This document shows positions 3,501 through 63,533 of a stretch of 64,000 nt of DNA, in pieces. Location: positions 32,001 to 96,000 of IMG/VR virus record IMGVR_UViG_3300013121_000037, one strand, 5' to 3'. The DNA comes from a virus (Duplodnaviria; Caudoviricetes). Within the stretch, counting starts at the first letter, position 1, and each line of letters begins with the position of its first letter. The notes beneath the pieces were generated by a model. It did no database searches. It had not been told where the DNA came from and was given only the letters and a program-made list of their open reading frames with translations. The position numbers were made by a program, and so were the translations under genes.

Positions 3501-6500
3501 ATCCAGCAAGGTGGCATACCACTGGGCCAGGTGCGCAAAATGCGACTGTTTACTTTTGCCCACCTCGGAGGAGGTTACCTCGGGGTCAATGAGACGCAGA
3601 CCGGTGATGTCATCCAGCACAAACTTGTTGCCAGGACGATCCTTGCCATAAGTCACGGGACGATTGCCGCCTTTGGCTGAACCTGGTACGCGCATCTGCT
3701 GTTCTCCCGCCCCCGGAATGTGCTTGAGTTTCACCAGCGTGAAATGGGTCAGCGCCCCCGGACTGAACTCAAACGGTACATTCTCCTCAACCCCCAGCAC
3801 TTCATAGGCCGAATCATGATCCTGTACCAGTTCGTACTCACCGCTGTTGGTGGACAGCGACTCCACATATATACCGCGGCGCGTCTCGATCTCAAAGGCA
3901 ATACCGCGGCCACCACCAAACGACTGTATCTTTTGCGGATCGAACGAGGTGGACACAAAACCCGGCGTTTGCAAAAACATCCCTTTTCGCTGGGCCTCTT
4001 TGGCCAGGTCAAGGAAGTTTGTTAAATCCTGGCCATGCAACTCAATACCACGCCAGACCAGCACCGGTTCCGGTAACACGGGCGCCCGCCGAATCACCTC
4101 GCGCAACCGCCCAAAGTTGCGCTCCTGCTTGTCATCCAGGTCAAACCCGCGCCGCAATGACCTGTTCAGGTCCTTGAAATTGTCATCCGTGTACCACTTC
4201 ACCGCATACTGGCCCGCCTCGGGTACCTCCGCCAGATACTCCCGCATCAGGTCCGCAATTTCTTCTGGCGCATCATCCTGATGGGTGACTGCAAACGACT
4301 TCCGCAACTGCTCCCGCTGCTCCGGAGTAAAATCCGATTCCCCCATCGGCACCGGTGACGGTTCCTCCGGCAGGTCCAGTCCGGAGAAATCATCGTCCAG
4401 GTATTCGTCCTCGTCGTCCCGGTCATTGTTCTCGGCGTAAGTTTCGCCATCGGACTTGGCTTCGTGGTAATCCTGGGTCCATTCCCCATGATCATCGTAG
4501 TCGTATTCCCCCATCGACTCCCAGCGGTACAGGTCCACCGGTTCACTGTCGGGATGATCGGGATAGGGGTTGTAGGTGGCGTGTACCACAGTGACACTGT
4601 GTTCCTCACCGCCATCTTTCCAGGTGGCCACCAGGTCATCACTGCCGGTCGGTTCCACCCGATCCGGTTCAATGGTGCCATCCCAGTCCGGAGCCTGATG
4701 CTGCTCCTCGGCATACTTCACCCCCGCGTCCACCGCCTCCTCTTCCGAGGTGGTCCACTCACTCAGCGCCTCGCCATCATCATCTTCACAGCGGAACACC
4801 GGTACCGGTTCACTGTCCTCGTCGGGTTGGTACGTCCCCTTGACCAGTATCACGTCATGCTTCGTTGACTCACTGCTGCCATCTACCTCGTACCAGGACT
4901 TGATCTCCTCCGTATCGCCAATCTCCACCTCGTCCGGGTCAATGGAGCCATCCCATGCCGGTTTCGTGGCAGGCGGTGGCGCTACCGTCCTGTCTGCTGG
5001 TTGCTCTGGACTGGCAGTCCTGCCTGCCCGCGGCGACTTTGGCTGCGCTACCCGCTCCGGTCGCGCTGACCGGTCACCAGTGGGTTTCCTGGTCAACCGG
5101 GATTTCTCGGCAGGCGTGGCAGTGGCCAGCACATCGTCAGGGATGAACCACCCACCTGGAAAATGCTGGCCCCCAATATCAATGCCGCCCTTCGGCGCAT
5201 GCCGCACCTCATAATGCCGCGACTGGTCAAAATGCGACTGTCTAGTTTTGCCCACCTCCTGCCCATCCTGGGGGAAATCATCCGCCACTGGCGTGATGAC
5301 GTAGAAGTGGTCCCAGTCGTTATCCACGAAGCGGTTATAGTCCGGGTCCTCTGGTTTTTCCGGGTCAGCGTCATCCTGTTCTGGATTGGTGGCAGGACTG
5401 TCCTGGTAAAACAGGGGCAGAGCGTCCTGCTGGTAGTTGGCTCCCGTCACCCAGTTGGACAACCGCCTGAGCAGTGTACGCGGTGGCAACTGTGGAGCAG
5501 CTTCACCAGGTTGTGGAGGCACTTGCTCCATCTCAATCGTGGTGTGCCCCGTGTGGTCCGTGCTGACCTTGTGTACCTTGAACTGCGAGGTGTGATTGAG
5601 TAACAGTTCCTTTTCTGCCTCCTGGAAATGACCATGCGGCGTCACATCCAGACCATGCTTCGCCACAATCCGCAGTGTGACCAATCCCCGAAATGACACT
5701 GGAACTTCCTTTGCTGTCGAGGTGGACACATATCCTCCCATCAGCGTCGTGCCTTTGGCATGTGCCACCCCTGTCATTCCTTCAACAAATGCAGCAGCAT
5801 CTCGCTTTACCTTCTCCACTTGCTCCGGAGTCATGTTCGGTTTGATCTGGAACATGCCACGCACCACGTTGACCGGTTCACGGAACACATTCGCCTTACG
5901 AAAGGCATTCTGCAGGTGCTCGTGCGTGGCGGCGACCCGGTTGGGAATTTTTTTGCCCCGCCGCAAGGCCCGGTTCAAGGGTTGATCACCCTTGTAGGTA
6001 TAGTGCAGTACCGCTGCCGCCTCGTCCTGAGTCAGGTCGGGACGCGCCCCGTCTTCCAGTTTGGCATTGGGCGCAGCCCGCTCCAGAGGTGCCCGCATCC
6101 AGGCCCGCTGCACATGCTCCTTCATGTGCGGTTCAGCCCGCTCCCATTGCTCCTTCGAGATTACCGAACCTCCCGGGTGCTTGATACCAGCAATCTCGAT
6201 CTTGCCCTTCGGGGCATGCTGCCCTGTCTGCAATTGTGCCCGTTCCTGAGGTGTGGCTCTGGCTACCACCTCGGAAGGAACATATTCCCCACCCTTGAAA
6301 AACGTCCCCTGGATGGTGGCCCCGCCCTTCGGCGCATGTACCACCTCATAATCCAACCGCTCATACTCTCTCGGTGGCGTTAGCAAATGCTGGGCCCGCG
6401 GCACCACAGCATCCGCCAGCGTCAACGCCCGCGCCAGCGACCTCGTCTCATCCAGACTGGCCAGCACCGCCGCCTGGTACAGGTCGCTATTCCCAGCTGC

Positions 6501-7463: not shown

Positions 7464-7589
7464 CGTCTCGTCTCCTCTGACAGATGCCTGCCAGAGTAGA
7501 CGAAAACGGAATCCAGTGAGAAATGCGGTCCGAGATGAGCACTGCGCAAAATGTAACTGTCTACTTTTGCGCAGTGCCAGTGGAATGGG

Positions 7590-7787: not shown

Positions 7788-9727
7788 GCACCACCTTTCC
7801 GCTTCTGGAGATACTTCGCCAGTTTGTACTGCGCCCAGGAATTCTCCCGCAGGTCAAACCGCGCCTCATTCAGACTCTGCCCATGCACCAACCACCAATC
7901 CGCACCGGTGATCTTCTCCCGCTTCCGCTCCGGTCGCCCCCGCTTTTTGTCAAACTCGGACAACTTCGTCCTTATATTATTCGCTTCCTCGGGTGGAAGA
8001 TTTACTTCAGGTGCGTCAAAGATGTCCTGCACCGTTTCGGCATCCGGGAACAGTGCGGCCACCTTCTGGCCCAGACTGCCCTGATAGACTTTGAGCGTGG
8101 CAATGGTCTGGTCGTAGCCAAAGAGCGGCCAGGTGTAGTAACCATTCATGCCGCCGCCAAACCCGCCTGCCGCCCAGGTGGCAATGTAGTCAAATCCATG
8201 CGCCGTAGCGTTGTCTACCTGTCGGGTGAAGAGTTCCAGACCAACGCCTTTGGGGGCACTGTCGGCAGTTTCCAGCAACAGGTTGTGGATATAACGCCGC
8301 CCCTGACTGTCCACGCCAATAAAGCGCTCGGCAGAATCCAGATGGGTATGGAAACCATCCACCCGGAGTCCCCAGGAACCCGGCACGTCGTCATCCTCCC
8401 CCACCCGCAGCACCGTCACACGGCCATCATCTGGCATGCCCGCCAGTGACGCCAGCGCCTGGTAGGCAGCCTTCTCCTGCTCTGCGGACGTACCAGTATG
8501 GAATGCCTGTGGGAACAGTTTTCGTAACTGGTCCAGCACCTCCTGTCTGGATACACCACGCTCCAGAGACACCGAAGCCTGACTGACCGGCAACCGCTCC
8601 CGCTCATAAGGTGGCGCCTGCGCCGGTACAATCGCCTGCAGGTTGTCCAGTTCATCCTCAACCGGTTCCGCTTCCTCTTCTTCCTCCTCCGGAAGCGGCA
8701 TATCCTGTTCATCAGCCCGCTCGTTAACTTCGGCAACCACCTGGTCACGGTCTGTGGACCAGTCCCCTACCGCAGTTTCACTGTTGCTGCTGTCCCGTTC
8801 CTCCCAGCGCCACACATCCTGTGCTTCACTGTCAAGATCATCCGGGTAGGGGTCATAGGTACCCGGAACCACATAGATGTTCTGCTCCCAGACATTGTTA
8901 TCATCATCCACATGGTTCCAGGATCGCGTCAGTTCCCGGTCCCGCCAGTCCCGGTCCACAGCGTCATCGTCAATCGTGCCATCCCAATCAGGCAAATCCT
9001 CATTATTATCGCTGGCATAAGAATTGCCGTCCTCAATGGCTTGCTGGCGGTCAGCAGTCCACTCACCCACCTCCAGTTCGTTGCCAGCGTCATCCCTGGC
9101 CTCCCAGCGCCACACATCCCGAATTGGACTACCACTTACATCTGGGAAGGGATCATACTCCCCGTGTACCAGAACCACCTGATTTTGTTCTGGCACACCA
9201 TGCCGATTCACGGTGCGAAAACGCTGCAATCTCTCTGCTACCCGCTCATCAGGGGCAACCGTGTCAATGTTCTCATCCACCGTGCCATCCCACTGCGGTA
9301 GCGGTTTCGGTTTGCTGGATGGTTTATCCTGCGCTGGCTTGCTGGCAGGTTTCCCACCCGCTGGCTTTTCCGGACGCTCAGGCGGCGTCTGCCGGGGTTT
9401 CTGCCCACCACCCGGTTTCCCGGTCAACCGTGCCTTCTCCGCTGGCGTAGCCTGGGCCACCACCTCTGCCGGGATGAACTGGCCCCCCTTGAACTTCTGG
9501 CCCCCAATCGAGATGCCGCCCTTCGGCGCATGGCGTGCCTCGTAATGGGCCGACTGCGTAAAAGTAGACTGTTTTGTGGAAAAACTTTTGCCCACATCGT
9601 GATCGTCCACCACGGGCAAGTCAGCGATACCCCAATCAGCAGGGACTGGTTCAGCGGCAGACACCAGTGTGATATGACTGGTGTCATCATCCAGAAACCT
9701 TGACCGTTGCGCAGTTGCTATCATCAT
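7784..9727 (-). CDS. Polyvalent protein with HAPKGG tag, two acidic WDGT repeats and C-terminal GNAT-like acetyltransferase
   Basis: KGVGLELFTRQV..ATWAA..NGYYTWPLFGY GNAT-like motifs; start MMIAT overlaps the portal stop. Confidence 0.7.
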   Translation of the reverse strand: MMIATAQRSRFLDDDTSHITLVSAAEPVPADWGIADLPVVDDHDVGKSFSTKQSTFTQSAHYEARHAPKGGISIGGQKFKGGQFIPAEVVAQATPAEKARLTGKPGGGQKPRQTPPERPEKPAGGKPASKPAQDKPSSKPKPLPQWDGTVDENIDTVAPDERVAERLQRFRTVNRHGVPEQNQVVLVHGEYDPFPDVSGSPIRDVWRWEARDDAGNELEVGEWTADRQQAIEDGNSYASDNNEDLPDWDGTIDDDAVDRDWRDRELTRSWNHVDDDNNVWEQNIYVVPGTYDPYPDDLDSEAQDVWRWEERDSSNSETAVGDWSTDRDQVVAEVNERADEQDMPLPEEEEEEAEPVEDELDNLQAIVPAQAPPYERERLPVSQASVSLERGVSRQEVLDQLRKLFPQAFHTGTSAEQEKAAYQALASLAGMPDDGRVTVLRVGEDDDVPGSWGLRVDGFHTHLDSAERFIGVDSQGRRYIHNLLLETADSAPKGVGLELFTRQVDNATAHGFDYIATWAAGGFGGGMNGYYTWPLFGYDQTIATLKVYQGSLGQKVAALFPDAETVQDIFDAPEVNLPPEEANNIRTKLSEFDKKRGRPERKREKITGADWWLVHGQSLNEARFDLRENSWAQYKLAKYLQKRKGGA

Positions 9728-12513
9728 ACCACCTGATCCAGATACAGGACATGCACGGTTTTCTGGCCCACTTTTTTTTGTTCCATCCTGGTGCAAGCAA
9801 AGCGACTGTTATGCGGTAGCATCATTTCATCCTCTTTAGGAACCATGCTATAGGGCATGCCATCCAATCCCAGTCGTGCTCGAATCACCAGCACCACATC
9901 TCCTTCTTTTACAAACTGATGCTGGTCACTGGTACTGGTAGAAACAATGCCAGCAAATTGCAGCAGTTTGCCTTTTTTGGCCTGCAGTGACTCCTGCGCA
10001 TCGGCCACCAATTTCTTGACAAAGTCATTGCCAGCATGACCGCTTACCCCGCGATAAACAGTCACCGGTTGCGCAAACGGTTGCGCCTTGGCAAACGCTG
10101 TCTCCAGGTGCTGTAACAGTTGAATGTCAGTTTTCGTGGCCTTGCCTTGCTGACGCAAGACCACATTTAACTGTTCGTGATAACCAGAACCAGCATAAGC
10201 ACCGATGGAATTCTTTTCGGCATTGGTCAAACTGGGACGGGTCGCATCGGGTAGCAACCTGTTGGGACGATTACCAGCATGGGGCAGAAAATCCTGATCG
10301 AAATCAAGTTGCTGGGGCATGCTTTTCAGTGCGGTCTGCAAATATTCCTTGGTAACCGTTGGCTCATACAATTTCGCCAACTTCAGCAGGCGGTCCCAGT
10401 CGGCATCTTTGGCCAAATCTGCCGTGCCTTCCTGAAACATCAAGCGCTTGAGTACACGCTGCGTGCGGGCCGCTTTGCCCTGCACCAGTTGCCCCACATG
10501 CTCGGCAACCACCTTGCCCACATCACCTACCACATGATGCCGAATGCCTGCTTCACGCGCCACCTCCTGCTGGTAGCCAAACGGCAGCGCGTTAACCAGG
10601 TCGGCCAGATGCTCAACATCACCTGGGGACAATTCGTCGGCACTCAGCATGGCCTGCACGTGAGCATGCACCTGCTCCTTTGTTTGGGGCTTGATGTCGG
10701 GATGGTGTTCATCCACCGCTTTCTTGCCCAGCAATTTGCCCAGCCACCCCGGCGAATTGGCCTGTGCCTTCAGAGCAGCCACCTTGCGCGGTTCACTCTT
10801 CTCCGCCGCCTGCAGTGCCGTATCCGGGATGAACCGTCCCCCCGGATAGAACGTCCCGTTGACGGTTACCCCACCCCTGGGCGCATGCACCTGCGCGTAA
10901 TGCGCCGACTGCGCAAAACTCGACTGTCTACTTTTGCCCACCCGCTGCATTTGTGCCGCAGGTTCCTGGTCGGCACCACCGTCCAGCCACTCATCTCCCT
11001 CCCGCTCCGGTACAGGTGTCTGCCCCAGCAAACTGTCGTCCTCTTGCTGCTGGTCAGCGTCCGGTGGTTGCTGCTGATCCATCCCGGGTTGTCCAGGCAT
11101 GCCACCGGGTTGCTGCTGCTGGCCCCCAATGACCTCATCACCCTCCTGCGGTGCGGAGGCACCTGTCAGGGCGCGTACCTCGTCCATGATGAACGTGACC
11201 CCCAGACTGGCCGCCGTCTGGATGGCCTGCAGTCGCTTCTGCGGGTCCGGTTCGTCGATGTCAAAGACCCAGCGCGGATAGATCCGGTCATAGGTGTCCG
11301 GCAAGGTCCAGCGCTGAATTACCCGCACAAAATCCCAGGTCAGCGTTTCCGCCAAATTGTTGGCATCAAAAGCAATGATCTTGCTCTTGGTGGCTGCGTG
11401 CATGGCCGCCACCCCCGTACCACCCAACCCCGAACCCTCCGTGTCCGAGGATAACGTCTGCCCTATGATAAACCGCTCCTGGAACTCGTCAATGTAGGTG
11501 ATGAGCTTGAACAGCAGTTCCGGTCCCGCCGTGGCCACATCCACATATTCCACCGGGGCCTTTTGCTGTGAATCCGGATTGCGCGGCACCAGGATATTGA
11601 CCCTTCGGGCATTGTCCTCCGCCGCCTCCTGCACCTCGCGCCGACTGCGGTCATTGCCGCTCTCGTAATACCAGAGCCGTACCCCCAACCCCGCCCGTTC
11701 GGCCCAGTCCGAGATGTTGGAAATCCACTCCATTTTGAGCCAGTTCCACCAGTACAGCACATGCCGCAAACCAATGCCGTGAATGGCCTCCGCCATCTCC
11801 GCATTCAGAAAGTCCTCATCGGAGACAATGTGCCGGTGAATGATGAACCGCTCACGCCAGTCCTGCCTTCTGAGCACCACCGCCCGCCCCCCCATCGTGC
11901 TGGAGGTGTACTCGATGCTGGCATTCGGGATGTCATCCTCCCCCGAGGCTGCATAGACGTGGATCCATGGGATATGGTCGTAGGTGTGGCCAATCTTGTC
12001 GCCATTGACCGGCAGATGCCGCTCGGCCACCAGCGAGCGAATCCCGCCAATGGCGCGGAATTGCCAGTCCAGTTGCACACCGTAACGACCATACCAGACC
12101 GCATCCAGCAGATTGCGAATCAGGTGGAACAGATAGGGAGTGCGGCGAATCACACTGGTCAGGTGCTTCTTGACAAACGTGTGCTCCTCATCGCGGTCGT
12201 CATCGGTGTCCAGATGCCATTTGAGCGAGACGGTCCCCAGATAGCGTTCCTGCAACTTGCCCATCAGGTTGACATCCACCCGCATGGCCAGAGCATCTTC
12301 CCGCGAGTGTCGCATCGCCTCATCAAAGCGCCCGTGAAAATACTTGCGCCAGGCCAGACCCAGGAAGGAGTTGAAGGTCAGGACATGCGGGATGGCAAAA
12401 CCATCGGACATTTCGCTATAGCGCACCGGAGTGCCATCCGGATACACCAACCCGCCTTGTGGCTGAGATGGCGAAAAAAAACCGTTGTGTCGCTGGCCAT
12501 TGACCGGAAACAT
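9724..12513 (-). CDS. Phage portal protein (DUF935/Mu gp29-like) fused to a C-terminal ADP-ribosyltransferase
   Basis: LDAVWYG, GIGLRHVLYWWNW, IIGQTLSS..G portal motifs; C-terminal VYRG..IVSTS..EDEMML; likely start MFPVNG at 12513, since the ORF extension upstream runs into IS sequence. Confidence 0.8.
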   Translation of the reverse strand: MFPVNGQRHNGFFSPSQPQGGLVYPDGTPVRYSEMSDGFAIPHVLTFNSFLGLAWRKYFHGRFDEAMRHSREDALAMRVDVNLMGKLQERYLGTVSLKWHLDTDDDRDEEHTFVKKHLTSVIRRTPYLFHLIRNLLDAVWYGRYGVQLDWQFRAIGGIRSLVAERHLPVNGDKIGHTYDHIPWIHVYAASGEDDIPNASIEYTSSTMGGRAVVLRRQDWRERFIIHRHIVSDEDFLNAEMAEAIHGIGLRHVLYWWNWLKMEWISNISDWAERAGLGVRLWYYESGNDRSRREVQEAAEDNARRVNILVPRNPDSQQKAPVEYVDVATAGPELLFKLITYIDEFQERFIIGQTLSSDTEGSGLGGTGVAAMHAATKSKIIAFDANNLAETLTWDFVRVIQRWTLPDTYDRIYPRWVFDIDEPDPQKRLQAIQTAASLGVTFIMDEVRALTGASAPQEGDEVIGGQQQQPGGMPGQPGMDQQQPPDADQQQEDDSLLGQTPVPEREGDEWLDGGADQEPAAQMQRVGKSRQSSFAQSAHYAQVHAPRGGVTVNGTFYPGGRFIPDTALQAAEKSEPRKVAALKAQANSPGWLGKLLGKKAVDEHHPDIKPQTKEQVHAHVQAMLSADELSPGDVEHLADLVNALPFGYQQEVAREAGIRHHVVGDVGKVVAEHVGQLVQGKAARTQRVLKRLMFQEGTADLAKDADWDRLLKLAKLYEPTVTKEYLQTALKSMPQQLDFDQDFLPHAGNRPNRLLPDATRPSLTNAEKNSIGAYAGSGYHEQLNVVLRQQGKATKTDIQLLQHLETAFAKAQPFAQPVTVYRGVSGHAGNDFVKKLVADAQESLQAKKGKLLQFAGIVSTSTSDQHQFVKEGDVVLVIRARLGLDGMPYSMVPKEDEMMLPHNSRFACTRMEQKKVGQKTVHVLYLDQVV

Positions 12514-13811: not shown

Positions 13812-13957
13812 TTGACGGCAGACCGGGAATGTACCAGAATGGACGGCGAACAAGGGGGAAATGAGCGAGCCAGAGGTGCCACCCGCCTCTGGCTCGCTGG
13901 CGTTTTATTCACAATTCCTGGTTGCAACTGGCAGGTCACTGCGCAAAATGCTACTGT

Positions 13958-14650
13958 CTACTTTTGCCCAGCACTGTCTTTGGCCCACTGGAGACAGGCC
14001 GCGGACATGATTTCTATGGCCGCAACCCTGGAATGGTATTCTCTGGGAAGTTGCTTACGCAACCGGATCAGATACTGTTGTAATGGTTCCGGGATAAAGA
14101 ACTGCTGCCCCCACCGTGCGGAGAAAAGCCAATAATACATATCCAATTCAGGGTTATTACTTTCTGGACCAGTGAACGGTTCCTGGCTGCCACTTAGGCG
14201 GTGCCGCTCTGCTGCCCCCAGTTGCCCCATCTGAAACGGTTCCTTGTCACTCAGCGTGACTTCCTGCACCGGTTGCTGCCGCACGATGGCCGGACCATGC
14301 TGGAGCCAGTCAGAGCAGGTACAGGTGACAGAGCAAACGAACCCACGAGAATATGTTGACGTGAATCCTGGTAGACGCACACCCCAGCGACAAAAGTCTT
14401 TCCCTAACAACTGTTGTTCACGCATCCGCAGGCATTTTTCCTCGCGGTCAGCATCCTGGTTACCCGTCGCCACAGGTTGCCCATCTGGCGGCACCCCGAA
14501 CCGCGCCGCCAGTTCGCACTGCACCCGGATAAACTCCGCCCGCTCCGAATCACCATGTTCATCCAGCCAGTCCGCATAGATGAGACGTGGAGCATCCTCG
14601 GATGGTTCCTCCAGGATGGCTGCCAGCAATGCCTGCTGCTGTTCGCTCAT
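13958..14650 (-). CDS. TIGR02996 domain protein (planctomycete repeat-companion domain)
   Basis: LLAAILEEPSEDAPRLIYADWLDEHGDSERAEFIRVQC; stop codon lies inside palindrome 13938. Confidence 0.85.
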   Translation of the reverse strand: MSEQQQALLAAILEEPSEDAPRLIYADWLDEHGDSERAEFIRVQCELAARFGVPPDGQPVATGNQDADREEKCLRMREQQLLGKDFCRWGVRLPGFTSTYSRGFVCSVTCTCSDWLQHGPAIVRQQPVQEVTLSDKEPFQMGQLGAAERHRLSGSQEPFTGPESNNPELDMYYWLFSARWGQQFFIPEPLQQYLIRLRKQLPREYHSRVAAIEIMSAACLQWAKDSAGQK

Positions 14651-15448: not shown

Positions 15449-15648
15449 TCCCTGTCACTGCGCAAAACTCGACTGTCTACTTTTGCCCACCTGCTATGAC
15501 CATCGCACCCGTCTGTACCTGCGCCGCAGTCGCTTACCCTGCACTGGCAGGACGCGGGCAGGTTTGTCCCACTGGCGACAGCGGCGAATCTCTGCCACTC
15601 GCCGCCGCGTTTCTGCCAGTTTGTACCCGCCACGGGAGCGTGTACCCA

Positions 15649-17518: not shown

Positions 17519-18227
17519 GGTTCACCTTCCAGGTAGACGAATACCTAACAGCGTTAGCACCAGCACCACCGGGGCCAGCAAGGACAGCGACAACCAGAAC
17601 AGCAGCACGGCGTACCAGGGGGCCAGACCACCACCCAGCACCTTGCCCATGTCCGTGCGAATCTGCTCGAAATGGCGGGCCAGCAGGGTTGCCAGCATCA
17701 GCACCAGGCCACAGTACACCCCGCCAAGAAACCACCACCACTCAGGTACCACCACCACCTCCGTTTGTTCTGTCCGCCAGCACGCTGGCACCGCGTAACC
17801 GCTGTACTTCCTCATGCAAAACATGCAACTCAGCACGAGCAATAATAACAGCATCCTGCAACCGCTCCCGATCGGCGTTAGCCAGTGACTCCCGTTCCTT
17901 GTGCAGGTTGACCTGCGCACGCAGCGTTTGCACCTCTGCCTGGAGTTCATGGCACTGCCGGACCACGGCATTCTTCGCCTCGGTCACTGCGGCCAGTTGC
18001 TGCGAAGTTTCAGAGTGACAGGCAAAGCAGATGCACTCTCCCTGCGTCCCCTGCAAGCGAAGCCCCGAGCAAAGTAAACAGCGTCTGTGCATGTTTCACT
18101 CCTCCACTGATCAAAATGCGACAGTCTAGTTTTGCGCAGTTGACTGTATCAGGGTGTTTCCATTAGGGGTCAAATCGCACCTGAAACAGGTCCGCTGCGC
18201 AAAACTAGACTGTTGCATTTTGACCAG

Positions 18228-19106
18228 TTACACCTTGACCCGCAGCAAATCCACCGCCCAGCAACCTCTGACGTGCGGACCGGCATCACCACCACAACGC
18301 GGGCAACCACCGATCACTTCCACGCTTCCGGTATACTCATCCATGCCAACCCCAGTGTTGCCACAAGTCTCGCAATTTGCTCGACGGCGTAGGTGCCGCA
18401 GTATCCTGTCCTCGCCGCACCCCGCTTCTTCCAGGGCGTCGGCAATGATGGCCAGTCGTGCCGGATCCAGTTCGCCCGTCTCCAGAGTGCCGGTGCCGTG
18501 GCAGTGCGGGCACGAATCTGCCCCCAACCCGGAAGCACAATTGCAACCGGTTTTATGCGACAGTCCCTTGCACCTATGTGGATAGGTGCATCTTCGCTGG
18601 TATGCCTCCTCGGCCAGGCGTGGGATGGTACCGTCGTTCCAGGTGAGCCAGACGTGGTTGACGGTGAGCGGGCGGAAAGGATTGCCGATGATGTCCCGGA
18701 GGAGGTTGGCTTGCGTGGCAGGTAAAACGGTTGGTCCAAACACAGTGGAAAAGACGTTGTTATGATAAATCGTCTGTCGCAATGCAACAGCAATGTCTGG
18801 GCAGGTTGCACACCACACCCAACCGTCTTCCGCTCTGGCTTGCCTTCTGGCTGTTAGCAGGCCACTGTGTGATAAATACTGGTCCGCATCCGCAAATTGT
18901 TCCGCAATTTCCACTGCCTTCTGACTGTGCTCGTTAGCCAGCAGGTTCCAGACCTGGCGACAGACGGTACAGGCGAACAGACGCAATTTCCTGTTGTCAC
19001 ACCGCCACAAAGTGCGTTCCATATCCAGCGTGCAATCAGTCTGATGCAGCAGCGTTTGCAGCATTTCCTGCGGGTCCGTGCTGGTTAACCACTCGGTTTC
19101 GGTCAT
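18228..19106 (-). CDS. Planctomycete-type MTETEWL...GPHVRGCW family protein, copy 1
   Basis: RKLRLFAC, LLRDIIGNPF, LAIIADALEEAGC, GPHVRGCWAVDLL; bracketed by palindromes 18194 and 19120. Confidence 0.8.
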   Translation of the reverse strand: MTETEWLTSTDPQEMLQTLLHQTDCTLDMERTLWRCDNRKLRLFACTVCRQVWNLLANEHSQKAVEIAEQFADADQYLSHSGLLTARRQARAEDGWVWCATCPDIAVALRQTIYHNNVFSTVFGPTVLPATQANLLRDIIGNPFRPLTVNHVWLTWNDGTIPRLAEEAYQRRCTYPHRCKGLSHKTGCNCASGLGADSCPHCHGTGTLETGELDPARLAIIADALEEAGCGEDRILRHLRRRANCETCGNTGVGMDEYTGSVEVIGGCPRCGGDAGPHVRGCWAVDLLRVKV

Positions 19107-19164
19107 CGCTGACTTCTCCACTGCGCAAACGTAGACTGTCGAGTTTTGCACACCTCTCACCAAT

Positions 19165-21259: not shown

Positions 21260-21381
21260 AGAGAAACGGCGTGAATTTGTGGTTATTCATCACCCGCCTG
21301 TCCCATGATGAATACTGGCCATTTTACCAACTGGTGCTTGCCATGTCACACCGCACAAACTGCTGCGCAAAATGCTACTGT

Positions 21382-22119
21382 CTACTTTTGCGCAGTGGTT
21401 GGTTTATCCTGTCGGCACTGCGCACAGCAGACGTGGTCACCGAATACCAGATCGGCGCGGGGATAGTCCGCCCCACAATAACAGCAGTGTTCAATCTGCC
21501 CGTCCAGTCGCCAGAGTGCTGCCGCCACCCATTCCGGTGTGCGTCGGGAGCGGGACTCTGGCGAGAAACCGTACCACGTTTCCAGGTACATTTCGCACTG
21601 CCGCCGCAACTGACCGATTTCGTCCAGGGTCAGTTGATGCAGATTCACTGTTGCTGGAGAACACGCTGGAGTGGGTTGCTGGCGACCGCGGTCTTCAGGT
21701 GGGCGTTTGCTACCCGGTGGGTTGCGCCGGCCAAAGTCACCTTCGCTGCCATCGGTCTGCCAGGACTCGTGGTAGTAGGGTAAATCCGGGTCTGGCATCA
21801 TCAGGAGTCGCACAGGTGGCGTCCCCAGGATGGCCAGGTAACCAGCATGGTCATCAATCAGGATGTCGATATGGTGCTCCTGGCAGACCACCGCCTTGCA
21901 GCGTTCGCCATGAGTTTCGTAGTCGGCACAGATGACTTGCTGGGGCGGAACAGCAAACCCGTTATCGTGGCAGAAAGTGGTGGCTTTCTGGTGTGGCTTC
22001 ATGTCGCTGATAACGAACACCTCGAGCTCAGAGGAAAGCAGCAGGACTTGCACCAGCGGTCGGAAGATGTCCGGGTATTTGGACAGGCACCCGCCAATGT
22101 CGAAAGCAATCCGGGTCAT
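21382..22119 (-). CDS. HAD-superfamily-like protein
   Basis: RIAFDIGG and DILIDD motifs; bracketed by palindromes, with the stop inside palindrome 21362. Confidence 0.6.
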   Translation of the reverse strand: MTRIAFDIGGCLSKYPDIFRPLVQVLLLSSELEVFVISDMKPHQKATTFCHDNGFAVPPQQVICADYETHGERCKAVVCQEHHIDILIDDHAGYLAILGTPPVRLLMMPDPDLPYYHESWQTDGSEGDFGRRNPPGSKRPPEDRGRQQPTPACSPATVNLHQLTLDEIGQLRRQCEMYLETWYGFSPESRSRRTPEWVAAALWRLDGQIEHCCYCGADYPRADLVFGDHVCCAQCRQDKPTTAQK

Positions 22120-22187
22120 CTGGTTTTCCTCTTCCTGCGTGCTGCGCAAAAGTAGACTGTTGAGTTTTGACCAGTGGGTGGTATCAC

Positions 22188-27855: not shown

Positions 27856-27963
27856 CGACTCACCTCGCTTCTGCTGCGCAAAACTCGACTGTCTACTTTT
27901 GCCCACCTTGATCAGGAATGCGATTCACTGCTGCGCAAAATGCAACTGTCTACTTTTGCGCAG

Positions 27964-42976: not shown

Positions 42977-43022
42977 GCTTTCCTCCTCACTGCGCAAAAT
43001 GTAACTGTCTAGTTTTGCCCAC

Positions 43023-43904
43023 CTACTCGGCCATGAAGTCGAGCAGACTGGCTTCGCGGGTGGAGAATTGTTCCTGGGCCTGGGTCAGGTTTTTCCTGGC
43101 CGCGACCACATACTCATCCTTGAGTTCAATGCCCAGAAAGCGCCGACCGCATTCCAGTGCCACCCACCCCTCACTGCCAATGCCCGCGAATGGCGAGAAC
43201 ACCACCTCACCCGGATTCGTGTACAGCAGGACCAGTCGGCGGATAGTTCCGAGTTGAAGCGGGCAGATATGTTTGGTGTCGTTCTCGCCCTTGGTGCCGC
43301 GGACGTTGAGGGTGTCTGTCTCGCGGATGTTGAACCAGGCCCCTTCTGCCCACTCAATCCAGTCGTTGCGCGACACCTCATCCGTGGAGTCCACTGGCAC
43401 CGCATTGTCACCATCCGCCCGGAACTTGATGAGGTAGTCGCAGAGCGTACCCCGCGATTTCGCCCGATCCGCTTCCAGTCCCGCAAATTGCAGTTCCCGA
43501 CTCTTGGTCCGCAGCGCCTGGCTCTGTGGATTGCGGCGCACCAGCCAGTCGTATTCGTAGATAAGTCCTGCCCGTTCTCCCAGGCGGATGTTCAGACCGC
43601 GAAAGTCGTGCAAACCCCGCTCACCACAGCGTTTCATCCGCGGTATTTGCACCACATGCACCATCGCCACTCGCCCCGGTTTCAGCACTCGCGCCAGGGC
43701 GGCATAGAAGTAACTCAGGTGCAAGCGCCCCTCATGCGCCAGGTCTTCACTGTTACCAAGATCCATTTGCGATGAAGAATAGGCGTAAACCGATGGAAAA
43801 GGTGGACTGAAGATGGCGCAATCGAAGCTGGCGGGTGCCAGGTCCGCCATGACTTCAATGCAGTCGCCCTGAATCAGGCGCCACGGCTTACCATTGTCCA
43901 GCAT
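43023..43904 (-). CDS. N4/N6 DNA methyltransferase (beta class)
   Basis: FSPPF catalytic motif; HICP; SPFAGIGS. Confidence 0.88.
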   Translation of the reverse strand: MLDNGKPWRLIQGDCIEVMADLAPASFDCAIFSPPFPSVYAYSSSQMDLGNSEDLAHEGRLHLSYFYAALARVLKPGRVAMVHVVQIPRMKRCGERGLHDFRGLNIRLGERAGLIYEYDWLVRRNPQSQALRTKSRELQFAGLEADRAKSRGTLCDYLIKFRADGDNAVPVDSTDEVSRNDWIEWAEGAWFNIRETDTLNVRGTKGENDTKHICPLQLGTIRRLVLLYTNPGEVVFSPFAGIGSEGWVALECGRRFLGIELKDEYVVAARKNLTQAQEQFSTREASLLDFMAE

Positions 43905-45387: not shown

Positions 45388-45463
45388 GGACGCACCATCT
45401 CCGCTGCTGCGCAAAATGTAACTGTCTACTTTTGCCCAGTTGGTATCTGCTGAAAAACGCTGG

Positions 45464-48485: not shown

Positions 48486-49105
48486 GTGTACCTCACCCTG
48501 TTTAGCAAACCAGTCACTGCGCAAAAGTAGACTGTCGAGTTTTGCGCACCTGACCCTGTTCCAGTTGCAGACCGTGGAACAAACCGCGTTTGCAACATTC
48601 GTTCCAGACAGCGTCATAATCCGGGCGCACCCGTGGATTACGCTTCACTTCAATTGCCATCTCTTCCAGATGCTCGAATAGTTGCTCGTTATCGAGTATT
48701 TGCAAATCCATCACGAAAGGTCGGGAGGCACATCGCGGTCGTCCCATAATGGTTGTCCTTCCTGCTGTCTGGCAATTAACACTGCCAATCTCTGAATACT
48801 GCCCGGCAAGGCGCTGGTAGGTCCGCTACCTGACTGACCAGAAAGTTCCCAGGCCAGATCAGCACGGAGCAGCGCCGAGTCCGCGGCGCTCTGGCCACTG
48901 GCCCGCAAACGCAACGCAATTAAACACGCCTTGCACTTTTTCTCCCGGGACTGACGCGGCAACTCCGCGCCACAGCGGTCACAGTGCCGCCGTGGTGGTG
49001 GGATGGGTCGGCCATAACGGCAGCGCCGGCAGGTGCCGCCCGTCTTCTCCTGCACCCGCACCTGGCACTGCACACAGCGCGGTTGAGTTACCACGGTCTG
49101 CGTCA

Positions 49106-49629: not shown

Positions 49630-50427
49630 GTAAAAACCTCCCTGTATGGGCGACGAATTAACAATTCTGGCTCACCGGGACTTGCACCCAGCGATACACT
49701 GCCTGATCTGGTGAAATGACAAAAAGCCCAGACTGGCAGCACACCAGAGTTTTTTCACAATTCCCACAATTCCCCTGTGTGAAAGATGAGGCGGGAACTG
49801 GCTTCCCATTCAGCACCAACACCACGGCACCACAATGTAGTTCCCGCCTCATGCGCTCGCGTTGACTCAGGTCACCGGCTGCGGATTGGTCCGCAGTTCC
49901 CAGGAGATATTCGCCAGGTGCGTCTTGGTACCCGACAGGCAAATCATGATATTTTCCAACTCACGCCGAATGGTGCTGGCGTACTCGTAGGTAACGCTAT
50001 CCGCAGTCTTCACGCTGGTGATGGAGTGAAACGCCTGCAGGGCGGCACTGTTGATCTTCTCCACCTCGACGCGAATCCCCTCCAGGTCCGCGTGCAACCG
50101 GTCACCTCGTTCGTCCTTGCTCATGGCATGGTTTCCTCGCAGGAGTTTCCCACTCTGCACCATATGCTGGTCCCGCTTCAATCTGCCGACTGCTGCTGAC
50201 ACAGGACTTCGATCTCGGCCAGTGAATCGTCAACCGCCGTCCAGTTACGTTCACAGAGCGCCCAGCGGGCACGCTCCACCAGTTTCCTGATCTGGGTTAG
50301 TACCTCGGGGCGCACTGCGGAACCTGCCGCCAGTGGCGGTTGTTGCTCATTGGTCATGTTGGTTATCTCTTTTTCCCGGTACTGGGCAAAACTCGACTGT
50401 CTACTTTTGCGCAGTGGTAGAAAATAA

Positions 50428-50571: not shown

Positions 50572-50576
50572 GCTAA

Positions 50577-52147: not shown

Positions 52148-52492
52148 GCTTAATTCCTCGTATTGTGTTGGTGGTTCACTGGTCAAAACTCGACTGTCTA
52201 CTTTTGCGCAGTGGGTAAAAAAAACGGCAGTGATGGGTGTGCAACAACAAGTCGCACGCTAACAGGTGGTGCAACGAACCTCAGAATCACCACCACTGCC
52301 GTTGTTCTCAACGTGGCCTGCTGTTGTGCCCCACATGCCACTGCTGGCAATGTGGACACTGGTAGCAGTGCATGTGCCGGATACCGTCACTGTTGCGGTT
52401 GATAAGTCCCAGCAAATGTCGCTGGGCGCTCGCCTGATTGGCATGGGCGATCTTGCCGGTGCGGGTACACTTCGGCAGGGTGCGCAGGGTCA

Positions 52493-53140: not shown

Positions 53141-53984
53141 GTCTTTTCCTCCGTTCTCCGTTAGTGGTTCAGGTTCCCTGCTCCAGTTGCCGCACCTCAG
53201 CGCTGGGCAGACCGTAGGTGATGCCACGCTTCGCTTCCAGTTCGAGCGCGGCATCCACAATCTTCTGGGCGCGTTCCGCCACCCCTTCCGCGTTGATGGC
53301 GTAGGTGGCCAGTCCACCAAGCACATGGGCCAGCAGCAGCAGTCGCGGTGGCGGATACTCCTGGTGCGGTTCAGACAACCGCTGCACACAACCGTTGTTG
53401 TCCAGGACAGGTTGACTCATGGGTTCCTCCTCGTGTTGCTGGTCACTGCGCAAAAGTAAACAGTCGCATTTTGCGCAGCGACCTACTCCTGAAGCAGCGC
53501 CAGTGCCTGCCGAAACACCGACAGAAACTCACTGCGCTCGCAGAACAGCAGACCGCTGGCCAGAAACTGGCACTGCACCACATCGCCTGCCGGTGACTCC
53601 AGTACCATCCCGGCCAGCACCGGCACGCCATTGCACTCACCATGCAACCAGTTCCAGGTCCACAATTCGCCGCCAATGGACAGCACCCCAGAGCAGTCGT
53701 TGCTGTCCTCTGGCTGTACGAACCAGTGAACCGCCTCAGTGCGCACCGGTAGCGTGGACAGCGACATCGTTGCTCCTTGTGCTGCTGGTAAAGCAGCGAC
53801 TGGTGTTGAACGGTCAAGTTTCCAGGTCGTTCCCGGCAGGCATGGCTTGACTTCAAGTCTCAGGTAACCGAATAATACGGTTACTGGTTACTGGTGTCAA
53901 TACTCAGCAGAGAAAAACTTGCTGATTATCAACCGAATAAGTAGATGAGGAAGTCAATTGACTTTACAACTTTCACCTGTTCTC

Positions 53985-54260: not shown

Positions 54261-55490
54261 CCTACCCTGCACTCAATTGTAAATTCGTGGTGGGAATCTT
54301 ACGCACCGAACCCGGTACACGTCAGTCTGTACCTGTCGGTCTGTTCAGATGTTTTCTGCTGTACTGTCGGGCGTGGCCCCAGTCTGCTGGTTACCAGACC
54401 CACCAGACCACTCGGGTAAACCGTACCCCTGCGGACGGGCATTGGGGTCATTGGTCAGGGTGCCATCGCGCACCATCTCGGCCAGTTTCGCCTTGACCGT
54501 GCTTTCTCCCCATGTCATATATCTTTTGTCAAGAGCATTCAGTATCTGCGATGTGGTCAGACGATGACCTGCAGATCGCAGGACCGAGATAATGTCCTGG
54601 CGGCAGGTACTGGCGTCGTGCCGCACCGGTGGCGGTGCGGCTGGGAGCGTGACCTGAAAGGCACCACCGTGCAACAGGCGCACCTCGATGGTGACCTCAT
54701 CCTCCACGCTGTCCAGAAACGTATGCAGACTGGCCAGCAGAGCTTTTCTGTCAGGTCCAGGTGGCAAAGGCGCACCACAGGCGAGTCAACCAGATGGTTG
54801 ACAGATTCTGGTGAGTAGTCCTGCCCGGTCATGGAGAACCAGGCACCTGAAAATCAGGCAGCGTCCTGATGCACAGAGCGTGCCAGAACTGTGAATTCTC
54901 CAGGTGGAGGCGCTGGCGGAACCGAAGTGCGAAACAGCGGCAAGGTCGCGTTGCCCACCTGCAACCACCCAGCCAGGTGCAGGGACGGGAACTCACGCAG
55001 CAGGTTTTCCGCCAGTGCGGTAGATGACATGGTGTTCATGGGAGTTTTCTCCTCGCTGGGACAGCATACGCTATTTTAGTGTACGTTGGTACATTAGCAA
55101 GAGAAAACCTGTACCAGTCAGCGCAAAGAAAAACCCGCTGCACCAGCAGCGGGTTTTCAGGTTGGTGCTGGTCAAAACTCGACTGTCTACTTTTGACCAG
55201 CAAGCGAAGTTGTCGTTGTGGGGTCAGAAGCGGATGCTGAACTCCCGCGCGAGGGCGGTGGCCTCGGCGCGGGTCAGGTGGCCGCTGCTGGACGAATCGG
55301 GAGTGGCATTCCACCAGCTTCCGCTCGTCCAGCGGGCGAACCAGAACAGTTGCCGCCCACCGCCACCATCGACGGTGATCTGGCCGGGTTCCCGCCGATT
55401 TTCACGGAGCCATTCCCGGGCGCGGTTGACGGCATCCTGGCCGGTCTGCTGCTGCCAAAATTCGTTGGCCGTTTGCGCTGGCATGGTCTA

Positions 55491-58178: not shown

Positions 58179-59087
58179 GACTGCCGTTCCCAGTGGCCGT
58201 TTTTGACGGAGAAATCGTTCTCCCGGCAAAGGGAGTAGACCTCCCCCTCCACGCAGGGAACGATTCTCCCGTTGCTGAAGTGTGCTGCCCCACCAGTCCA
58301 CTCCAGTAAGGCACAGTCGTCTCCAGACACACTGAGATCGGCGGGAGCTTGGGCTACTACCGAGTAACCGTACAGGCCCCCATCACGCGATGCCAACCCG
58401 CCCATCTCGTATCCCATGAATTCTGCCATCTCTCATCCCTCCCTTGTGCCCCTCTCGGGGCGATTGCGGCCACGGGCGAGGTGGCCGGTGGTGGTGTGGT
58501 GTTACAAACCCGCTGAATTTTTGGTGGCCAACGACTCCAAATCGAAGCACAGTTGGGCGTAGCGTTTTCCGGTGTAGTTGTCCCGATCCTGCCGCCCGAC
58601 AAAATCGAGTGGATTGAATTCGTCAATCTCCAGTTCCGGTTTCAGGAACGGATCTCCTGGAATGCGTGCCTTCTGCATGCTCGGCCTTGCATTCAGTCGA
58701 GCCAATGCGGCTTCCGCCTCCTGGCGGGTCGCGGCCAGGGCGTACAACCGGCGACAACTGCGAGTGATGCCATCACCCGGAGCAGACGTGCGACCAATCG
58801 CATCAACCAGTGTCGAAGCGTACACGCAAAATTTAGCCTTCATCTTCGTCATCTCCTGATTGCGGCCACAATTAGTGGCCTGTTGTGTGGTGTCCGTCGC
58901 ACTCATCACACCATATTATTCGTGCTTCAGAAATGGGTATTTCACAGAATTATTTATAAACTTCTGTACACTTCTGCGCAAAATGCTACTGTCTACTTTT
59001 GACCAGTAGTGAACGTCATGGCAGTGTGGCACCTGAATTGCTGTTGCCTCCAGCACCACGGTAATACGGGTCTGGGAGGTATCTGCA

Positions 59088-60612: not shown

Positions 60613-60883
60613 GGGAACTGCGCAAAAGTAGACTGTCTAGTTTTGCGCAGTCAGGTGGGTAGCCAGGTAATGCCCGGTTCGCTGCCACCGTGCCAGGACA
60701 GGTGCAGCACGCGCAGGGAGCGGAAGCCAGGACCGTCGAACAGACACCAGAAACGTGCGCCTTCGCGGTCAGCGTGCAGGATGGCCGCAGTCAGGCGGTC
60801 GCGGTAAGCGGTCGGGATGCCAGGGCGACGGCGCAGGCACCGTATCAGGTCCTGCGCCGTCTCTGCCGTGGTCTGAAAGTGGG

Positions 60884-61216: not shown

Positions 61217-61346
61217 CGTTCCACCCCTTTGCTATCACCGGGCGACTGCTACACAATCTTATTCGTCGCTCACGATGATATATTTTAAGAAAATTCAGGT
61301 GGACTGTCAAGGCACTGCGCAAAATGTAACTGTCGAGTTTGCGCAG

Positions 61347-61865
61347 TCAGGAGCGTGCCGTCAGTTGCTCCAGCATGGCGGTGGCCCGCTGGTGCAGGTT
61401 TTTGGCCGCTTCCAGGTTGCCCCTGCGGTTCTTGATGGCCCGCCTCAGCAGGACGGCGGCTTCCTCCAGTTGCTCCAGCAGTCGCAGGGAGCGGACCGCC
61501 TGCGCCGTCTTCTCCTCCTCGTTCTGCACGCGCTCGAGGATGTCGGTGGGCACCAGAGGCATCAGGGCAATGCCGTCATGGGTGGGCACGCCGTTGCGAC
61601 CACGGTGAACCCGGAAGGCCAGTTTGGGTGCGATTTTCTCCAGGTTCTCGTAGCGCCACAAATCCTGCGGATGCTCCAGCGGTTCCTTGAGGGCCTGGCG
61701 CAGGTCCATCTCGTTGAGGACTGCATCCTGGGAGAGAATGAAGGCCGGTTTGCCGCGCTGGGGTTTCTTTTTCGCCTGGTGGGCTGGACTGCCGGTAGGG
61801 CAATCAGTCCAGTCGGGGAACAGCCAGGGATTGATGATTGAAATGCGGATGCGAAGTGGGTACAT
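61347..61865 (-). CDS. Hypothetical protein
   Basis: Stop abuts palindrome 61314; start uncertain. Confidence 0.5.
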   Translation of the reverse strand: MYPLRIRISIINPWLFPDWTDCPTGSPAHQAKKKPQRGKPAFILSQDAVLNEMDLRQALKEPLEHPQDLWRYENLEKIAPKLAFRVHRGRNGVPTHDGIALMPLVPTDILERVQNEEEKTAQAVRSLRLLEQLEEAAVLLRRAIKNRRGNLEAAKNLHQRATAMLEQLTARS

Positions 61866-62405: not shown

Positions 62406-63533
62406 GGCCAATACTCCCAGGTCATCAGAAATAATGTGTACAAAACAATTACGCATGGGCGAAGCAACTGCTTACAGTTCCGGGCGGCAATCCGGCAGGT
62501 ACTCGTTGGTATCCAACCAGTACCGCTTGCCACTGGTCGGGTAAACCAGGATGTCCACCACCCGACAGGTTTCTGCCAGGGCCACCACACTATCGCGGTC
62601 AGTCCAGTGACAATGCGGGTGGTCTGTATGCGACTGTAATTCAAAGCAGTCTGTTTCGACCACCAGCACCACATGGCCGAACCAGCGAGCGCAGTGCAGG
62701 TGTGGTGATAACCCAACCCCTCGCTGCGTTCTGGTCTGCTGCGAGTCATGCAGTTGCATGTCCTCGCGAGCAGTCCCGTGGTAAAAACGCATCGTTCATT
62801 TCCTCTTGCGGACTGGGAACCGCTCCCCACAGTGGGGAGTGCATTACAGGGTGGGCGTCCCTGTCCTCTGCATTACTCGCCACGCGCCAGGGCGGCCAGC
62901 ACCGCCCGCCGCAACTGGCGGTCGCCAATCCGACTCACCGCCACCTCCAACCGGTGCCCATGTGCAACCGCACCATGCACCTGCCGTACCAGCATCCGAA
63001 CAACAGTTTTCATCGCATCACCTCTTGTGTTGGCGTCCGTCTCGCCTGACACAAGTAATTCGCTGCTCACTGGCAGATATTTAACAGCAATCCGAGATTC
63101 TTTGTACAGATATGGATATGTGTACAGTAGTGAGCAAAACTAGACTGTCTAGTTTTGCTCAGCGCGGATTGCGTGAAATATTCAACCTTGACTTGCGAAT
63201 AATTTAACAGTAGGACAGATGGCAGTCGCCCACAACCGCCAGAGCAACCACCCATGCTTGACCCAACGAAACCCGTTGACATGCCATCCATTGGCAGTCG
63301 CCCCGCTGGACAGATCGCCTACTATGGTTGTACAAGGTGCCAGTGTCAGCATTTTGAAGGCACCAGACTGTTCCAGGAACACCTGCACTGGCAGTCGAGG
63401 CACGGCATCCAGGAAATGTGCCGCGCCGCCTACCTGCGGCAACTGGCGCAAACCAACTAAACTGTCTAGTTTTGCGCGGCGCGGATTGCGTGAAATATCT
63501 ATCCTTGAACTGACAGTCGCCCAATAGCGAGGA

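Follow-up and report, generated by a model that had tools for sequence, protein, structure and literature searches.

Why does a single phage genome carry dozens of copies of one long palindrome, most of them lying between the end of one gene and the start of the next? The question is raised by a 64,000-nucleotide stretch of DNA (the window), bases 32001-96000 of a linear IMG/VR virus record of 112,344 bp (IMGVR_UViG_3300013121_000037; Caudoviricetes) that is estimated to be 79% complete; coordinates given without qualification are those of the window, and those preceded by "record" count from the first base of the 112,344-bp record. A sequence-only reading of the window had noticed about 35 copies of a 35-bp palindrome and had offered two explanations, crossover sites for cassette-like gene exchange or a genome-wide binding array; the tests reported here favor the binding array, and cassette crossover drew no support from those that were run. 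Our reading, which we hold tentatively and at a little under an even chance, is that the copies are operator-like sites for a symmetric phage DNA-binding protein, a silencing role included; that a protein binds the duplex DNA of these sites in any role at all, clamp- and gyrase-type functions among them, we judge to be slightly better than an even bet. We favor a binding array because the sites are invariant in a dyad-symmetric manner without covariation of their arms, because almost no copies are decayed, because their spacing is more even than chance would give, and because the control region of a gene for a double helix-turn-helix (HTH) regulator includes a copy.

Copy number and consensus of the palindrome

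The window contains 30 exact matches to the core CAAAA-N5-CWG-N5-TTTTG, whereas shuffled sequence gives an expectation of 0.01. The earlier count of about 35 is accounted for by these 30 together with one copy that has a single mismatch (19120) and four variants that carry more mismatches or an insertion or deletion (9553, 35763, 61314, and 63446); the coordinates that had been given for the copies are correct, as are all six positions at which the center had been read as CAG on the + strand (18106, 23884, 26336, 33362, 34786, and 53445). The whole record contains 51 exact copies and 0 copies of the pattern written backwards, which served as a control. When the pattern is written as CAAAA-N4-ACWGT-N4-TTTTG and at most one mismatch is allowed, the record yields 54 copies, and a further variant copy, with an insertion or deletion or more mismatches, is found at record 5574.

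Aligned, the copies define a 35-bp unit, RSTGSK-CAAAA-N3-R-ACWGT-Y-N3-TTTTG-MSCASY, so that the length first proposed holds, but the conserved unit is longer than had been reported, often reaching 39 bp by way of flanking CA/TG, with nothing conserved beyond. A site carries about 50 bits.

Conservation of sequence without covariation of the arms

The copies are strikingly uniform at the positions that define the dyad. At the 18 dyad-symmetric core positions, 47 copies have no mismatch, seven have one, one has two and none has three, and chance matches begin only at four mismatches. Among the 54 copies no 35-mer is present in more than two, and pairs of sites share a longest exact run of only 13 bp at the median; since the core is nearly invariant and yet the copies are not recent duplicates, these observations indicate purifying selection on every copy rather than recent copying. 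Neighboring sites are marginally more alike than random pairs (p 0.04-0.09).

What variation there is falls at about six positions per half-site and draws on few alleles. A small set of arm alleles had been described from the window; the set is real, and the inner tetranucleotides form three classes (TGxx, GTxx, and CTxx), the first two bases being TG in 40 half-sites, GT in 41, and CT in 27, and never TT or GG. These half-site flavors are paired as GT+TG in 27 sites, CT+GT in 12, CT+TG in 7, CT+CT in 4, TG+TG in 3, and GT+GT in 1. Matching outer arms are found in 24 sites where 18.3 are expected (p = 0.02), complementary inner tetranucleotides in 4 where 8 are expected, and linkage between the outer and inner alleles of one half-site is hardly stronger than linkage between alleles of opposite halves.

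The arms do not behave as if base pairing were being maintained. At positions -6, -2, and 6-9 roughly half of the sites or more carry a mismatch, and the count of G.U pairs, 37 on the sense strand and 42 on the antisense strand, shows no sense-strand bias. Predicted RNA hairpins range from -25 kcal/mol (z to -7.8) down to -9.9 kcal/mol (z -0.17), the latter no better than shuffles. The center reads ACAGT at 26 and ACTGT at 12 of 38 same-strand junctions, and both orientations thus occur within one direction of transcription. What is conserved is the sequence, symmetrically, and not the pairing; such symmetric invariance without covariation between the arms is the mark that a symmetric protein leaves when it reads duplex DNA.

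Placement between genes and even spacing

The record is 87% coding, with 143 of its 164 genes on the minus strand (codon-usage gene calls, whole record), and 45 of the 54 copies are located outside called genes. Placement between a stop codon and the next ribosome-binding site, as the sequence-only reading had it, is real: among 33 clean same-strand junctions the distance from stop to site is -1 to 29 bp in 22, and the distance from site to start is 11-36 bp in 18, which leaves room just for a ribosome-binding site. The stops that had been said to abut a site or to lie within one are where they were placed (Table 1), those at 13958, 21382, and 37741 being within, and at 7 of 38 same-strand junctions the stop codon occupies precisely positions -8 to -6 of the 5' arm. 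Sites are present at 24% of minus-minus junctions and at 8 of 18 strand switches, and the units that they delimit contain 0-11 genes; several inverted gene blocks are flanked by sites, e.g. the HNH block at record 95543-96147. A sigma-70 promoter role for the sites was considered and rejected, the gap downstream being too short and scans around three sites giving no convincing promoter.

Five copies lie in-frame within open reading frames (ORFs) of 646-2295 aa, all of them in one and the same reading frame, and encode a polar 13-residue peptide of the form xGK(S/T)xxSxFxQS. Three of the five are immediately upstream of a HAPKGG...GGQFIP tag. Homologues in other phages contain the tag and lack the palindrome-encoded peptide before it; because the tag is kept in these proteins and the preceding peptide is absent, the palindrome is an insertion relative to the homologues.

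Over the whole record the sites have a mean spacing of 2062 bp with a coefficient of variation (CV) of 0.58, and the largest gap is 5432 bp. Uniform random placement gives a CV of 0.97 and a largest gap of about 9 kb, and random choice among gene junctions gives a CV of 1.03 and a largest gap of about 10.9 kb; for the CV the p values are at most 5e-5, and for the largest gap p is 0.006 against uniform placement and below 1e-4 against choice among junctions. Without the in-ORF copies, the very long ORFs would open gaps of 7 kb at exactly the places that these copies occupy, and the array gives the impression of having been arranged for coverage of the genome.

Occurrence in other genomes

Within the collections scanned, the palindrome array is multi-copy in this record alone. 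The strict pattern is present in 0 other viral contigs, and the looser pattern gives 3 single hits among them; one genome per species from 185,579 species gave 15 single hits and no multi-copy genome, and metagenome contigs gave 17 single hits, none of them multi-copy. The single hits in genomes and metagenomes are without the inner tetranucleotides of this phage or a matching second arm, consistent with their being chance matches. The sequence-only reading would have been overturned by an abundant host repeat, either a repetitive extragenic palindromic (REP) sequence or a miniature inverted-repeat transposable element (MITE); the search for one was negative in genomes, in metagenome contigs and in viral contigs, and a host element of either kind is ruled out by the lack of any multi-copy genome or contig in these collections.

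Relatives of the phage itself are likewise distant. A blastn search against 50,697 phage records returned short gene-level matches only and no near relative, exact-protein look-ups with two window proteins returned no record, and homologues of the portal protein are at most 60% identical, on contigs of 39-69% GC that are without a comparable repeat. A search of sequencing runs with window 17001-27000 returned none.

A candidate binding protein and a LexA-linked region

Our best guess for a protein that would bind the sites is a 185-aa protein with two XRE-type HTH domains, encoded on the + strand at record 7930-8487, 24 kb before the window, and the only solid HTH_3 protein of the record. Its gene is divergent from an 80-aa LexA_DNA_bind-like gene on the - strand, the two together spanning record 7429-8487, and the 258-bp intergenic region between them contains a palindrome site at record 7821-7859. 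Touching this site, at record 7859-7874, is CTGTACACCAATACAG, the only CTGT-N8-ACAG LexA-type box of the record. A near-identical 16-bp palindromic box, GTGTACGCCAATACAC, occurs at record 19156-19171 beside the site at record 19126, and both boxes start 31 bp after the palindrome core and lie between divergent genes. The motifs of these two site-plus-box composites suggest SOS-linked control and a proteobacterial host, and the layout of record 7429-8487 is that of a likely genetic switch.

A model of the tandem-HTH protein as a homodimer scored 0.66, compared with 0.43 for the best of three controls; of 30 proteins whose solved structure is a pair of one chain, 21 attain this mark, and of 23 whose solved structure is a single chain, none does. 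Runs of the model agree in at least 78% of contacts, the partner pLDDT is at least 74, and the interface is in the first HTH domain. A homodimer is thus supported by the modeling, with the proviso that XRE dimers are well represented among solved structures and the pass may reflect likeness to them. Among solved structures the nearest by sequence is the controller protein C.AhdI (1y7y, E 2.5e-5), to which the first HTH domain has its greatest likeness. In the C.AhdI relative C.Esp1396I, four HTH subunits fill a 35-bp operator whose dyad is on a central T:A pair (PMC2504287); by extension from that complex, four reading heads on a 35-bp dyad with a central W would fit a homodimer of the tandem-HTH protein.

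The candidate binders proposed earlier were the integrase, a ParB-like protein, and the small HTH proteins. The integrase was rejected, as attP has its own core and arm repeats. The ParB-like protein (46378-47490) is a weak candidate, matching the PHROG "ParB-like" family with E 1.2e-4 and giving no Pfam ParB_N match at E of 1 or below. The suggestion of a small HTH protein survives as the best guess, with the best one located outside the window.

On the operator-like reading, the copies would be recognized in double-stranded DNA by a symmetric complex of phage-encoded protein, the array covering the genome at intervals of at most 5.4 kb, and a homodimer of the tandem-HTH protein would present four HTH units to each 35-bp site. 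Given the copy in the divergent control region of its gene, the tandem-HTH protein probably autoregulates, and this same copy, which touches the LexA box, would tie release of the array to SOS induction. Bound sites at junctions and within long ORFs might then serve as roadblocks or insulators every ~2 kb, silencing the prophage or partitioning its transcription. The palindrome is likely to have had a mobile origin long ago, since a word of about 50 bits could not have come up separately 55 times.

Several observations weigh against this operator-like reading. The information carried by each site is far above what a repressor needs. The central base tracks the flavor of the half-site, GT halves reading A in 35 of 41 cases and TG halves reading T in 34 of 40, and this coupling is a real asymmetry that a simple homodimer does not explain. 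The polarity of the sites also flips near record 32 kb (window 1), with TG+GT sites being 7 reverse and 1 forward before this point and 16 forward and 7 reverse after it (Fisher p = 0.011) and with genes on the minus strand on both sides, a change that the operator model does not predict. A weak promoter of the tandem-HTH gene can be picked out by eye (TTGTGC-17-TAGAAT; a promoter scan found nothing in the region), and the palindrome site is upstream of this promoter, not over it. The tandem-HTH protein has no detectable homologues. Finally, the sites differ from stoperators, the dispersed repressor sites of certain mycobacteriophages, in that stoperators are asymmetric and co-oriented with transcription.

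Alternative explanations

The sites could instead be recombination joints, linkers at which modules are swapped, inverted or inserted by a site-specific recombinase acting at ACWGT or by Rad52-like annealing of short homologies, an explanation that we consider unlikely. It would account for sites at gene and domain borders and for in-frame copies, three of the five being upstream of the HAPKGG tag and inserted relative to homologues, which would permit exchange of effector domains; it would also agree with the inverted blocks flanked by sites (record 95543-96147, for example), with the copies one base apart at 50381 and 52178 that flank a 1.8-kb module, with the many pairings of half-site flavors, and with the presence of a gene for a Rad52/22 annealase (47520-48485). 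Arms of 13-15 bp around an asymmetric center are what we take to be the layout of simple tyrosine-recombinase sites such as loxP and FRT; the arm of the palindrome presumably resembles the XerC arm of dif as well, and the 13-bp spacing between the arms does not fit a Xer site. However, the single tyrosine recombinase of the record has a tRNA-type attP of its own, no serine recombinase was found in the record, and the Y1 (IS200-like) transposase family, PF01797, has no match at E of 1 or below in this 79% complete record. Nor would a fixed central crossover leave alleles within a half-site nearly unlinked, a median shared identity of 13 bp is poor for homologous exchange, GC and third-codon-position GC show no jump across site-bearing junctions in a test for mosaic composition, and the even spacing is not predicted. 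A more elaborate version, a cassette-exchange system of heterospecific 35-bp sites in which the inner tetranucleotides would set compatibility, related phages would swap genes, and the in-frame 13-codon form would swap portal-fused injected effector domains, we regard as a long shot.

Three further explanations were weighed against the operator-like array. That the palindrome is a selfish miniature element, REP/REPIN- or MITE-like and surviving only at harmless spots such as intergenic gaps and protein linkers, seems to us improbable given the lack of a master sequence (at most 2 identical copies among 54), of more than a trace of a decay series, of target-site duplications (flanking 2-5-mers are identical no more than by chance at element lengths of 35-45 bp), of a Y1/RAYT transposase in the record, and of any copy family in the genomes of 185,579 species, the metagenome contigs or the viral contigs, and given a spacing that is over-even, neither random nor clustered. 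In its favor are the discrete unit with flanks that are not conserved, a length of 39 bp or 13 codons that makes in-frame insertion possible, the fact that homologues in other phages have no palindrome peptide ahead of their HAPKGG tag, the existence of a few variant copies, and the two TnpB (IS605-type) elements, relatives of single-stranded-DNA transposons, in the same genome. RNA hairpins in the long minus-strand transcripts could act as processing sites, of which the RNase III sites of T7 are a known case, as REP-like stabilizers of 3' ends, or as pause or termination signals overridden by Q-like proteins. The position between stop and ribosome-binding site is indeed classic for intercistronic RNA elements, fully symmetric copies fold to -25 kcal/mol, U-runs come directly after a few of the copies (record 1416 and 6517), and two paralogous genes weakly match Q-like antiterminators; we nevertheless give this explanation little credence, as the invariance is in sequence and not in pairing, the arms show no compensatory change and the G.U pairs no sense-strand bias, some copies fold no better than shuffles (z -0.17), both orientations occur per direction of transcription (26 versus 12), copies within ORFs would cut or terminate their own mRNAs, and no Rfam family matches the sites, the tRNA fragment at attP being the sole match of the scan. 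There is a slim chance of some other genome-wide DNA function, such as ParB/KorB-like clamp loading, strong gyrase sites, T5-like nicks, or lagging-strand priming. Even coverage at ~2 kb would agree with such a function, the polarity flip near record 32 kb, which ignores gene strand, would suit an asymmetry linked to replication or packaging, and the phage encodes the weakly ParB-like protein (46378-47490; PHROG E 1.2e-4) as well as a primase and a clamp; on the other side, ParB_N gives no match with E of 1 or below, sites of the parS and OB kinds have a length of 13-16 bp versus 35-39 bp here, and nicking, gyrase action and priming rest on analogy, with no test result pointing to them.

Gene content and other features of the window

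The functions annotated in the record include a terminase large subunit (TerL), a Mu-type portal fused to an ADP-ribosyltransferase (ART), replication-type proteins (a dnaN-like sliding clamp, a primase, and helicases), several DNA methyltransferases, and a single tyrosine recombinase, the lambda-type integrase. Its attP, at 60390-60613, adjoins the integrase gene and contains a 53-nt 3' fragment of a tRNA (Rfam tRNA, 30.8 bits) with direct repeats of a TGTCACGGTATC-like 12-bp word on both sides; these arm repeats are unrelated to the palindrome. About 20 small genes, located close to the integrase or within the inverted blocks, were scanned with Pfam and PHROG and had next to no matches. Two TnpB genes (OrfB_IS605 plus Cas12f-like TNB; 12632-13651 and 40921-42045) are present without a TnpA gene, and, as had been reported of the two insertion-sequence elements of the window, neither holds a copy of the palindrome, the first being bounded by the site at 13938. 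The palindrome copies of the window are listed in Table 1.

Table 1. Copies of the palindrome in the window, with the state of the core and the surroundings of each.
Position	Core	Gene context	Other features
3530..3564	exact	in-frame in 2295-aa ORF	TGCG/CTG/GTAA
5222..5256	exact	in-frame in 2295-aa ORF	immediately upstream of HAPKGG tag
7541..7575	exact	gene junction	
9553..9595	variant	in-frame in 646-aa ORF	internal insertion of ~8 bp (43 versus usual 35 bp)
10908..10942	exact	in-frame in 907-aa ORF	between portal and ART domains
13938..13972	exact	provides stop of gene ending at 13958	
15457..15491	exact	gene junction	
18106..18140	exact		CAG center; first of doublet, 88 bp apart
18194..18228	exact	abuts stop at 18228	
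19120..19154	one mismatch	between TerL and downstream gene	
21362..21396	exact	provides stop of gene ending at 21382	
22141..22175	exact	gene junction	
23884..23918	exact	downstream of stop (23926) of dnaN-like gene	CAG center
25889..25923	exact	abuts stop at 25923	
26336..26370	exact	edge of 780-bp stretch without called gene	CAG center
26912..26946	exact		fully symmetric (TGCG/TGCG)
27873..27907	exact		first of doublet, 57 bp apart
27930..27964	exact	abuts stop at 27964	
33362..33396	exact	gene junction	CAG center
34786..34820	exact		CAG center; adjoins 12-bp x 4.8 tandem repeat
35763..35797	degenerate		center altered
37721..37755	exact	provides stop of gene ending at 37741	
39088..39122	exact	between primase-like and helicase genes	
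42989..43023	exact	abuts stop at 43023	
45406..45440	exact	gene junction	
48516..48550	exact	upstream of Rad52-like gene	
50381..50415	exact		one base different from 52178 copy; pair flanks 1.8-kb module
52178..52212	exact		partner of 50381
53445..53479	exact	gene junction	CAG center
55167..55201	exact	gene junction	followed by separate terminator-like hairpin
58973..59007	exact	low-coordinate side of integrase block	
60617..60651	exact	abuts stop at 60651	directly adjoins attP arm repeats
61314..61347	variant	abuts stop at 61347	1-nt deletion in T-run
63129..63163	exact	530-bp divergent intergenic region	
63446..63480	degenerate		right half and 35-bp flank duplicated from 63129

Some of the variant copies have a structure of their own. 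The variants at 9553-9595 and record 5550-5590 both have an internal insertion of ~8-11 bp that ends in CACAAA directly before the ACAGT center, and this shared arrangement suggests a small sub-family of extended sites. At 63129-63191 and 63446-63508 the right half-site and its 35-bp flank (GCGGATTGCGTGAAATAT...) are duplicated 317 bp apart; both copies are in the divergent intergenic region of 530 bp, and downstream of it comes a small block on the + strand whose last gene encodes an HNH endonuclease.

The ORFs that contain in-frame copies belong to a portal-linked effector region (576-12447) comprising the Mu-type portal-ART fusion, the 646-aa ORF, and the 2295-aa ORF, which has ART and NUDIX domains. 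Effector modules of this region start with the HAPKGG...GGQFIP tag, and the tag is also found on portal fusions of other phages. The two ORFs of the module at 50428-52147 have no Pfam match.

Repeats of other kinds occur nearby. A perfect 12-bp x 4.8 tandem repeat (TTCCTCAATTTC) at 34720-34776 may be an iteron-like element or else encode an acidic repeat. Another repeat family, unrelated to the palindrome, is located at 56129-58177, where three copies of a 47-88-nt unit are 68-90% alike; the unit includes a CACCCCT...AGGGGTG hairpin, and the large palindromes are sparse in the same stretch. The paralogous genes 18228-19106 and 32142-33125 share several DNA blocks that are 81-84% identical, and the C-terminus of the product of 32142-33125 weakly matches Q-like antiterminators (PHROG E 4.6e-9).

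Comparison with known systems

Stoperators of the L5 gp71 type invite a functional comparison with an operator-like array. In cluster A mycobacteriophages they are 13-14 bp long, asymmetric, and co-oriented with transcription, and both stoperators and the repeats of cluster O phages occur at about one site per 2 kb in short intergenic gaps (PMC4351075). The array described here shares with stoperators its dozens of copies, its density of about one per 2 kb, its preference for short intergenic gaps, a temperate phage as carrier, a copy in the control region of the candidate regulator itself, and the genome-wide silencing that we propose. Stoperators are recognized by more than 20 dispersed intergenic copies in a temperate phage, and we count 54 copies, 45 of them outside genes, alongside an integrase and attP; they are also recognized by an asymmetric site that follows the direction of transcription, whereas the site here, at 35-39 bp, is dyad-symmetric, occurs in both orientations (ACAGT 26, ACTGT 12) and partly within ORFs, and is bound only putatively. 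A further mark of stoperators is an immunity repressor that binds them and also an operator at its own promoter or at the early promoter, for which the site in the divergent control region of the tandem-HTH gene is a circumstantial counterpart.

Cluster O mycobacteriophages such as Corndog carry more than 30 copies of a 17-bp dyad repeat, TGTTCGG-N3-CCGAACA (PMC4351075). These too are invariant inverted repeats with a variable center, spread genome-wide, many of them intergenic and some in ORFs, with an orientation that is not tied to transcription. They differ in being built as 7+3+7 bp rather than from two 17-bp composite half-sites, in their sequence and host group, and in belonging to phages that are not obviously temperate; the word TGTTCGG-N3-CCGAACA is not the word of this array.

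The operators of the controller proteins C.Esp1396I and C.AhdI resemble the sites in length (35 bp), in the central T:A dyad, and in the use of four XRE-type HTH units (PMC2504287), but they occur once per system, versus about 55 times here, and are read by an 80-aa monomer rather than by a tandem two-HTH candidate. The C-box GACT-N3-AGTC-N4-GACT-N3-AGTC is absent from the site, so that what is shared is the length, the central T:A dyad, and HTH kinship.

Dispersed palindromes of other kinds match the array in part. KorB-OB of the IncP plasmid RK2 and dispersed ParB sites likewise place one palindrome at operon boundaries for global control, but OB is 13 bp and present in 12 copies, and there is no convincing ParB-family protein here. 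Integron attC arrays, such as the Vibrio cholerae repeats, are homogeneous imperfect palindromes that directly follow stops and delimit small gene units, whereas the present sites occur in both orientations, within ORFs, and around units of 0-11 genes; no integron integrase or attI was found, and the RYYYAAC/GTTRRRY core is absent from the consensus. Bacterial REP and REPIN sequences also take the form of 35-40-bp imperfect palindromes placed in the extragenic gaps of operons, and they differ from this array, which has no multi-copy host-type genome among those scanned, no RAYT gene, no master sequence, and no cloud of decayed copies.

Genome-wide palindrome arrays are a known phenomenon in phages, the cluster O repeats and stoperators among them, and of these only stoperators have an established role. 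The present array is set apart by a site that is twice as long, by composite half-sites with a limited set of alleles, by in-frame linker copies in injected-effector polyproteins, and by a plausible four-HTH binder. It is an extreme case, with sites of about 50 bits that are composite, strictly conserved, evenly spaced, and present in-frame in giant effector ORFs, and, with a candidate binder and a site beside a LexA box, a single protein and a single oligonucleotide are enough to put it to the test. Should the array silence or insulate a prophage of the 140-kb class, the principle of stoperators would reach past the actinobacteriophages and take in 35-bp sites with a four-HTH architecture.

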